This document shows, in pieces, positions 20,512 through 21,557 of a DNA stretch of 64,000 nt (position 1 is the first letter of the stretch; every line of letters begins with the position of its first letter). The position numbers and the translations under genes are program-made. Source of the stretch: Escherichia phage vB_EcoM_H12. The notes under the pieces were generated by a model, which was given only the letters and a program-made list of their open reading frames with translations, made no database searches and was not told the DNA's origin. The stretch is taken from sequence record PP952733.1. One strand, written 5' to 3'.

Positions 20512-20952
20512 TTAGAAAGGTTTTCTACGTTGCTTATTAATGTTAGCTTTCATAGCAGCTAAATGGTTTTGCTGTTCAATCAGTCGTGAGCGTTCTTGAT
20601 GGCTAAGTGCCATAGTGTTCACATTCTCAATCGCTTGAGTGGCTTGCTTTAAAGCTCGACCAATCTTGCCAGACATTTTACGTTTTGCAATAGTTGCTTG
20701 ATGCTTAGGTTCAACCACACGATAACCAACACCCATTGAAGCAACCAGATAAATCTTCTCTTCTTTAAGAAGCTTCTCAATAAACTTCTCAAGTCGGTTT
20801 AGACGTGTAAGCGCATAAGCCTTCATTTCATCTTCGTACTTAACAATGTCACCTTGATAAGTTGGCTTCACAATACCTAAGAATGTGTCCATCTCAGAAT
20901 GTGATACAGTGTCACCGTAACTAAACTTTGCTGCTAATGCTTTTGTATTCAT
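20512..20952 (-). CDS. hypothetical protein
   Basis: 146 aa; coupled to 20955-21557; terminator downstream. Confidence 0.45.
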   Translation of the reverse strand: MNTKALAAKFSYGDTVSHSEMDTFLGIVKPTYQGDIVKYEDEMKAYALTRLNRLEKFIEKLLKEEKIYLVASMGVGYRVVEPKHQATIAKRKMSGKIGRALKQATQAIENVNTMALSHQERSRLIEQQNHLAAMKANINKQRRKPF

Positions 20953-20954
20953 AA

Positions 20955-21557
20955 TTAAACGTTACCTTCTGAAATAACTTCTACAGAAAAACGACCAAAG
21001 CGTGGACGCCAATCACCTACACCACAAAGGTTGCCAGCATTTTCCAGAACCATCAGAAGTTCCTCTCTGGTGATTTGCTCTTCATCGAACATCAAACCGA
21101 ACTCTACAGACCAGTCACGGAAGATTGGACGGTAGCTCATAACTCGTGCTGTGCCAATCTTAACAGATTTAGCATAGATAAAGTCTGGATTCTTAGCAAG
21201 TTCTTGTGGGTTTGCTGGACAGTTCTTGATAGTCATTGGGAAGACTACATCTGTCAGCATAATGGCTCGGTCAATTACCTTACCAAGTTTGTTGAGTTTT
21301 GCACCAGACTTGATACAAGCCTCAATCATCTCACCGTTCATAACAAAACCTAACTGCTCATCGTAGTAACAAGAAGTTACCAGTTGACTTTCTGCTAAGA
21401 GCGCATAGTCTTCGTCAGTCTTTTTACGTTTACTGGACAAAGACTTGTGATATTTTGTCAGAGGATTTAACGGGTCTGACAATGTATCGTTATGGCTCAG
21501 GAAAGGACGAGTACCAGTGATTTTGATATTTAACAGTTTCATAGCATTTAGCTCCAC
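20955..21557 (-). CDS. hypothetical protein
   Basis: 200 aa; preceded by long structured leader (copy C). Confidence 0.45.

Follow-up and report, generated by a model that had tools for sequence, protein, structure and literature searches.

A VIPR locus beside the DNA ligase gene of Escherichia phage vB_EcoM_H12 and the predicted satellite targets of its guide RNAs

Escherichia phage vB_EcoM_H12 is a Felixounavirus-like phage, and the stretch of DNA analyzed here (sequence record PP952733.1; 64,000 nucleotides, hereafter the window) covers 64 kb of its ~88-kb genome. Close to the DNA ligase gene, the minus strand of the window carries a pair of adjacent genes together with three tracts of pentanucleotide repeats, one upstream and two downstream of the pair. 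The proteins are homologs of Vipr and Vap1 of the Viral Interference Programmable Repeat (VIPR) system, a phage-encoded, CRISPR-like system of RNA-guided DNA silencing whose loci comprise vipr, encoding a ~20-kDa RAMP-like protein, a vap accessory gene and flanking guide RNAs (vrRNAs), each consisting of 9–16 YNNGG repeats followed by a structured tail (10.64898/2026.04.26.720920; 10.64898/2026.04.26.720927). Very likely, in our view, these genes and repeats make up a complete SUSP1-clade VIPR system (type II), with guides aimed at an ~11-kb satellite of E. coli. Membership in this clade is assigned because Vipr is 97% identical to SUSP1 Vipr, above the >90% identity that defines the clade (10.64898/2026.04.26.720920; 10.64898/2026.04.26.720927). 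The locus is already known as a member of the VIPR system published in 2026 preprints; the contribution made here is a guide-by-guide prediction of targets, along with what was noticed about the hairpins, the loss of the cassette and orphan guides. The genes and guide RNAs are arranged as follows.

21542..20955, minus strand: vipr, 195 amino acids (aa) from an ATG start (MKLLNIK...)
21557..20955, minus strand: the version of vipr in the open reading frame (ORF) list, 200 aa from a GTG start
20952..20512, minus strand: vap1, 146 aa, VIPR accessory protein, probably DNA-binding
21710..21651, minus strand: vrRNA1 repeat tract, 12 YNNGG units, guide TT AA AA GC CA GA AT CT GA AT AA CT
21650..21618, minus strand: vrRNA1 3' tail pseudoknot, stems GTGG/CCAC and TGGTAG/CTACCA
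20451..20392, minus strand: vrRNA2 repeat tract, 12 units, guide GA AC GC TA AA CT AG AG GA TT AA GC
20391..20359, minus strand: vrRNA2 3' tail pseudoknot, stems GTAG/CTAC and TAATCG/CGATTA
20319..20250, minus strand: vrRNA3 repeat tract, 14 units, guide TC CG TT AG CT AG GT TC AT GT TT GT AA AT
20249..20217, minus strand: vrRNA3 3' tail pseudoknot, stems AAGG/CCTT and TGGCAG/CTGCCA

The true start of vipr is almost certainly the ATG at 21542, because it is preceded by GGAG and because the same start is annotated in Escherichia phage fjerdesal and in SUSP1 and is that of the solved protein. The original prediction for this locus, drawn from the nucleotide sequence without database searches, had correctly seen a translationally coupled pair with a second gene of 146 aa; the first gene encodes 195 rather than 200 aa, and the vipr stop codon and the vap1 ATG are 2 nt apart (TAA TT ATG), not 3 nt. 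The placement between the ligase gene (23131..21992) and folA/thyA (18088..16642) was likewise right, with six small genes in between. A 1.9-kb segment around the locus shares 95.8% identity with fjerdesal and matches 230 phage records.

The repeats exceed chance expectation by far: a GGYNN pattern of six units has 16 matches in the 64 kb, exclusively within the three minus-strand tracts, and none in 100 shuffles. One degenerate unit, TAAAG, is found in each of vrRNA1 and vrRNA2. Positional entropy within the unit, calculated from 659 units of 54 unique vrRNAs, amounts to 0.51 bits for Y, 1.92 and 1.86 bits for the two N positions, and 0.62 and 0.12 bits for the two G positions; GGY is therefore conserved and NN near-random. 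Guides are diverse, with 53 distinct ones among 67 vrRNAs. That of vrRNA2 is common to 10 phage records and that of vrRNA1 to 5, and the vrRNA3 guide occurs in no other sampled phage except for a one-unit variant found in fjerdesal by direct reading. A megablast search of phages with the vrRNA3 tract returned nothing, for which the low-complexity filter may be the cause.

Each tract runs into a 33-nt tail with the pairing pattern of an H-type pseudoknot; covariation is visible even among the window's own three copies. An alignment of 16 distinct tails (the window plus 18 related loci of IMG/VR) is paired in 93% of its cells, and changes on both sides are seen in 9 of 11 pairs; none of 500 shuffles was as good, and slid registers reach only 28–47% pairing. 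The interval 19900-22100 yielded no Rfam family and no CRISPR array in the sense of identical direct repeats with unique spacers, but only vrRNA units, hairpins and tails. The repeats had been described as brackets of an insert; rather than passive flanks, they are guide-RNA genes with covarying structure and, as described below, with matching targets.

Neither Vipr nor Vap1 matched Pfam, and PHROGs returned only families of unknown function. Proteobacterial and actinobacterial phages and prophages encode hundreds of Vipr homologs, which are ~190 aa long and ~40% identical. A profile built from 33 of them, the kind of remote homology search that had been proposed, matches one solved structure, PDB 36pp, entitled 'SUSP1 Vipr protein' (E = 1.9e-81). 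The 97% identity to SUSP1 Vipr extends over 195/195 residues, and all 13 residues published as contacts of GGY, of the skipped base or of the non-target strand are kept at the same positions (H17, K33, R39, E71, M72, K82, G87, K88, R138, C173, D177, W178 and R179). An AlphaFold2 model of Vipr with a predicted local distance difference test score (pLDDT) of 93.8 gave 39 PDB matches at E <= 1e-3 in Foldseek, the best with E about 1e-4 and a template-modeling (TM) score of about 0.5. All 39 chains belong to CRISPR-Cas entries (type III Csm/Cmr and type VII effector complexes, Csm3, Cas6). By this comparison Vipr has the RAMP fold of class 1 CRISPR-Cas backbone subunits, and its closest matches, Csm3, type VII Cas7 and Cas6, agree with the proposed kinship to CRISPR RAMPs.

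Vap1 is 99% identical to SUSP1 gp038 (Vap1). An exhaustive HMMER search revealed 234 remote homologs, whereas a word-indexed protein search gave close relatives only; a profile of the homologs matched no PDB chain and no Pfam family. Structure prediction, also proposed originally, placed Vipr next to Csm3/Cas7 and was of less help for Vap1, whose single-sequence AlphaFold2 model is of low confidence (pLDDT 68) and had no significant Foldseek match. The top non-significant rows are winged-helix regulators, which is weakly suggestive of a winged-helix fold, in line with the published prediction. The identities to Vipr and Vap1 of a published system supersede the initial description of the pair as being of unknown function. 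A role in replication, as a single-strand-binding or annealing protein, was suggested by the proximity of ligase and polymerase genes and was dropped, as no such homology was found and the protein is of the Vipr kind. No fitness class for gp038 or gp039 is given in the main text of the SUSP1 CRISPRi-ART paper.

In SUSP1, Vipr forms a filament on the vrRNA with one protomer per pentamer, in which GGY is hidden and the NN dinucleotides pair with double-stranded DNA while every third target base is skipped; the resulting R-loop triplex blocks transcription, Vap1 enhances the effect, and any matching DNA is silenced without need of a protospacer-adjacent motif (PAM) (10.64898/2026.04.26.720920; 10.64898/2026.04.26.720927). 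Within the SUSP1 clade, 18/20 guides with identifiable targets match a satellite phage, whose 'baseplate' protein is 72% identical to SUSP1 gp017, and in published natural targets the skipped bases fall on codon wobble positions (10.64898/2026.04.26.720920; 10.64898/2026.04.26.720927). When 5,426 complete E. coli genomes were searched with the baseplate gene by distant blastn, a 'phage baseplate protein' turned up in 474 of them. Eleven loci of 24–30 kb each were read from these 474 satellite-bearing genomes. Most contain an integrated element of ~11 kb, inserted in yecE (DUF72) or adjoining tonB, and one (L039) occupies a third site between mdtG and lpxL. Most copies encode a large serine recombinase with Resolvase, Recombinase and Zn-ribbon domains, i.e., an integrase, as well as a tape-measure protein, a Dit-like baseplate protein, HNH endonucleases and small genes of unknown function. 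This integrase has no relative in IMG/VR. Counterparts of the satellite proteins are encoded in the window at 4174-7199 (plus strand), with 77% identity for the Dit-like baseplate protein and 27% for the tape measure. Since the window thus carries the tape-measure and baseplate genes copied by the satellite, this type of phage is likely its helper.

Targets were scored with the published 1-nt skip rule by counting matched NN guide positions, with at least 80% of NN as the criterion for a natural target. For each of the three guides a target was predicted in the satellites (locus handles with the prefix L).

L008 13482..13448: vrRNA1 target, 22/24 (92%), recombinase gene of tonB-site satellites; also in L007, L035 and L036
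L008 8634..8600: vrRNA2 target, 21/24 (88%), leader of a satellite operon; also in L009 and L040
L006, L009 (13180-13220), L037 and L040: vrRNA3 target, 23/28 (82%), recombinase gene of yecE-site satellites

The predicted targets recur across 11 independent satellite loci. The vrRNA2 target lies 49–83 nt upstream of a 236-aa ORF and downstream of a strong promoter-like site, at the head of an operon in the order 236-aa ORF, 68-aa ORF, tape-measure gene, baseplate gene. In both coding targets the skipped bases coincide with codon position 3. None of 300 unit-shuffled guides reached the observed scores (means 16.6–18.6, maxima 19–21), and skip rules of 0, 2 or 3 nt gave background values of 15–20. 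SUSP1 guides 1, 2 and 4, used as positive controls, behaved in the same way as the guides of the window; for SUSP1 vrRNA3 no site was found in the five loci scanned. All matches of at least 79% in the eleven loci fall within the satellite and none in flanking host genes. The best self-targets within the window, 17/24, 18/24 and 19/28, equal the shuffle background. When 185,579 species genomes were scanned for the exact pattern of vrRNA2 units 2–12 (with one purine-degenerate position), the single match was in an Escherichia albertii contig that is 82–94% identical to the satellite.

In vrRNA2 the mismatches are concentrated in unit 1, and in vrRNA3 in the final two units. Within the clade these units hardly vary (guides begin with GA or AA and end with AT); they also overlap with hairpin or tail sequence and are probably not guide positions. 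Near-variants of the vrRNA3 and vrRNA1 guides are present in fjerdesal (L001 6225..6151 and 7617..7558, respectively). At one unit the vrRNA3-like guide of this phage has TT for the CT of the window, and TT is the dinucleotide in the satellite target, which suggests that guide and target track each other.

Two of the satellites (L008 4194..4125 and L040 4872..4803) carry a 14-unit vrRNA of their own with a phage-type pseudoknot tail, and a satellite-borne vrRNA is mentioned in the VIPR paper (10.64898/2026.04.26.720920; 10.64898/2026.04.26.720927). No vipr is annotated in the satellite loci read, where no search aimed at vipr was made. The guide of the satellite vrRNA found nothing above background in the window and nothing convincing in the sampled satellites; its best score, 22/28, lies in a sequence resembling a host repetitive extragenic palindromic (REP) element.

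The expression signals of the locus frame the gene pair and the downstream array.

21807..21780, minus strand: sigma-70 type promoter TTGACA-16-TATACT, 11/12 consensus positions, ahead of vrRNA1-vipr-vap1
20503..20478 (stem 20500..20485), minus strand: intrinsic terminator-like hairpin and T run, 3' of vap1
20169..20217, minus strand: AT-rich terminal hairpin and T run ending the array, an inverted repeat
20198..20170, minus strand: promoter-like site of the next gene, in the loop of the terminal hairpin

The promoter, the structured leader and the clean terminator had all been recognized beforehand. The promoter sequence is identical in SUSP1 and is also present in relatives that lack vipr. 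Besides the pseudoknot tails, the locus contains four copies of a hairpin element, three of which precede a vrRNA.

21749..21711, minus strand: 5' hairpin of class A, directly upstream of the vrRNA1 tract, -20.7 kcal/mol, z = -5.4
21616..21579, minus strand: fourth copy, class C, between the vrRNA1 tail and the vipr start with no tract after it, -13.6 kcal/mol, z = -3.3
20484..20447, minus strand: 5' hairpin of vrRNA2, class B, its 3' arm taking in the first repeat unit
20358..20320, minus strand: 5' hairpin of vrRNA3, class A, -24.4 kcal/mol, z = -8.6

The hairpin core GTCTT-N4-6-RGGRT-NN-TTWA has exactly 4 matches in 64 kb, all at the locus, with 0.01 expected. The element is kept in 18 related loci and falls into three classes with different stems, and class C is represented by one identical sequence 17 times across the 19 loci compared (window included). 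The main text of the VIPR preprints contains no discussion of it. Possibly, the hairpin acts as an RNase III-type processing signal in the maturation of type II vrRNAs. The GTCTT...AGGGT element was also considered as a general phage promoter, which was rejected on account of its four occurrences in 64 kb, all within the locus.

Among related phages, coding DNA of vipr-vap1 was detected in 117 records compared with 262 for the DNA polymerase gene, with presence in 76/119 Escherichia phages versus 17/76 Salmonella phages. The cassette is accessory. The original view of an autonomous moron-type insert stands to this extent, and the pair is neither universally conserved in related phages nor homologous to replication proteins, the two findings that had been named as speaking against that view; the part that did not hold is that of a protein effector with passive repeat flanks. 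The complete genomes of Salmonella phage Si3 and Felixounavirus NRG857CP1 encode no homolog of Vipr or Vap1. Such vipr-less relatives retain, between the ligase gene and a 127-aa gene, the promoter, the 5' hairpin, one or two vrRNAs and the last pseudoknot tail. Si3 (L042 790-970) has one vrRNA with degenerate GG positions and no target match, and NRG857CP1 (L043 790-1110) has two intact vrRNAs that match satellite genes at 25/28 and 21/24, with shuffled maxima of 21 and 19. The flanking repeats seem to play a part when the cassette is gained or lost: where vipr is missing, the site is occupied by a fused promoter-hairpin-vrRNA-tail unit. It is conceivable, although we regard it as rather doubtful, that vrRNA genes form a detachable guide library working in trans, in which recombination between flanking vrRNA units would delete vipr-vap1 and orphan vrRNAs of vipr-less phages and satellites would be loaded by Vipr from a co-infecting or helper phage; the separate proposal that the long hairpin is an RNase III-type signal for vrRNA processing is held just as tentatively.

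By analogy with SUSP1, the locus would work as follows. The sigma-70 promoter would drive vrRNA1-vipr-vap1, with two more vrRNAs supplied from behind the vap1 terminator. Vipr would polymerize on the vrRNAs, and gapped pairing would lead to an R-loop triplex that blocks transcription of the satellite. Silencing of the integrase genes may block excision of the satellite, and silencing of the tail-gene operon may block the hijack of tail genes. Two satellite lineages could be silenced at once, and the phage would thereby protect its own burst.

Several observations weigh against this interpretation. Expression of the vrRNAs, formation of the Vipr-vrRNA ribonucleoprotein and silencing in this phage are extrapolated from SUSP1. 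The vrRNA2/vrRNA3 array is separated from vap1 by the terminator, no good promoter was found for it, and the Vap1 model is of the low confidence given above. Among the 12 satellite loci sampled no guide has a perfect full-length match, the best reaching 82–92% of NN. The scan for self-targets, furthermore, covers 64 kb of the ~88-kb genome. This last point bears on the explanation that the system is functional and aimed at genes of the phage itself or of the host, in temporal self-regulation or host shut-off, with incidental matches to the satellite. It gains from the capacity of VIPR to silence any matching DNA without a PAM and from the extent of the scan, which took in 64 kb of the phage and about 150 kb of satellite-flanking host DNA. 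Within that range, however, self-matches do not rise above the shuffle background, every match of at least 79% in the eleven loci lies inside the satellite, and the three guides all point to a single element, as published for 18/20 guides of the clade with identifiable targets. We therefore judge targeting of phage or host genes to be improbable.

Even less probable, in our estimate, is a protein-only moron cassette directed against host defence or superinfecting phages, in which the repeats are scars of insertion or recombination. Such a cassette would fit the presence of its own promoter and terminator, the patchy occurrence among relatives, and the boundaries in vipr-less relatives, which lie within repeats. 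Yet the repeats have the published architecture of guide RNAs (conserved GGY, hypervariable NN, covarying pseudoknot), satellite genes are matched by the NN code at a level well beyond chance, and Vipr is nearly identical to a solved RNA-guided DNA-binding protein. The original suggestion of anti-defence or superinfection exclusion gives way on these grounds to predicted RNA-guided silencing of a satellite, and what survives of it is a conflict with another mobile element. The least credible explanation is a decaying or inactive VIPR remnant, for which one may cite the patchy presence, with about half of the relatives already lacking vipr-vap1, the orphan and partly degenerate vrRNA of Si3, and the TAAAG unit in each of vrRNA1 and vrRNA2. 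Against decay, both ORFs are intact and 97–99% identical to active SUSP1 proteins with key residues kept, the guides still match their targets at 82–92%, and similar degenerate units occur in SUSP1's own active vrRNAs. A complete VIPR system aimed at the satellite remains the reading that we prefer.

The closest parallel is VIPR of SUSP1 itself, which has the same order of promoter, vrRNA, vipr, vap1, terminator and vrRNA array at the same site beside the DNA ligase gene, and shares the 5' hairpins, the YNNGG tracts, the types of pseudoknot tail and the satellite family targeted. It differs in having four vrRNAs as opposed to three here and in all guide dinucleotides, and in the window two guides are directed at integrase alleles of two satellite lineages. 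The Pseudomonas fulva prophage VIPR and other homologs, e.g., that of a Rhodococcus globerulus prophage (L002), have a comparable pair of vipr and a vap1 homolog flanked by YNNGG arrays, with Vipr about 40% identical, but are found in temperate or prophage contexts with other 3' tails. The published targets of prophage VIPR systems are resident prophage regulators, not a satellite (10.64898/2026.04.26.720920; 10.64898/2026.04.26.720927). In the Rhodococcus globerulus prophage (L002 11134-11650 and 18368-18752), Vipr is 42% identical, the gene after vipr is a Vap1 homolog (hhalign probability 97.7%), and seven YNNGG arrays are present, five after the gene pair and two more beside the integrase, with 3' tails unlike those of the SUSP1 clade.

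Phage ICP1 combats the PLE satellite of Vibrio cholerae by means of a canonical type I-F CRISPR-Cas system that cleaves its target and acquires spacers. It resembles the present case as a lytic phage with an RNA-guided system targeting a satellite that parasitises the phage, and it differs in that the published activity of VIPR is binding and repression, not cleavage and acquisition. A nuclease or acquisition module is not evident among the neighbors of the locus (ligase, folA, thyA and small hypothetical genes), for which no systematic domain scan of the window was made. With the class 1 CRISPR Cas7/Csm3 filaments, VIPR shares the RAMP/RRM fold with G-loop and thumb, one protomer per periodic unit of RNA and base flipping at fixed intervals. 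Unlike these, published VIPR loci hold nothing beyond vipr and a vap gene and lack further cas genes, the guide is gapped, with two bases read and three hidden in tandem pentamers so that the target is read at two of every three bases, and silencing proceeds without cleavage. VIPR has been proposed as a viral ancestor of the CRISPR effector backbone (10.64898/2026.04.26.720920; 10.64898/2026.04.26.720927).

VIPR is a newly described way for RNA to read DNA, a gapped two-of-five code on a RAMP filament, and its assignment to this locus explains a conserved 'hypothetical' gene pair and the odd repeats in the Felix O1-like phages, which are widely used in therapy and typing. The guide assignments also predict which E. 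coli satellites the phage can suppress, namely those with tonB-adjacent or yecE-inserted integrases and those with the late-operon leader. The patchy cassette, the orphan guides of vipr-less phages and satellites, and the conserved hairpin ahead of the vrRNAs bear on maturation and exchange of the system.

Finally, the gap between the ligase gene and the VIPR promoter is spanned by a very basic 62-aa ORF (21992..21804, minus strand) that enters the -35 box and whose GTG start overlaps the ligase stop codon. The segment holding it is absent from Si3 and present in SUSP1 and NRG857CP1; the ORF, unannotated in fjerdesal and SUSP1, is a candidate gene.

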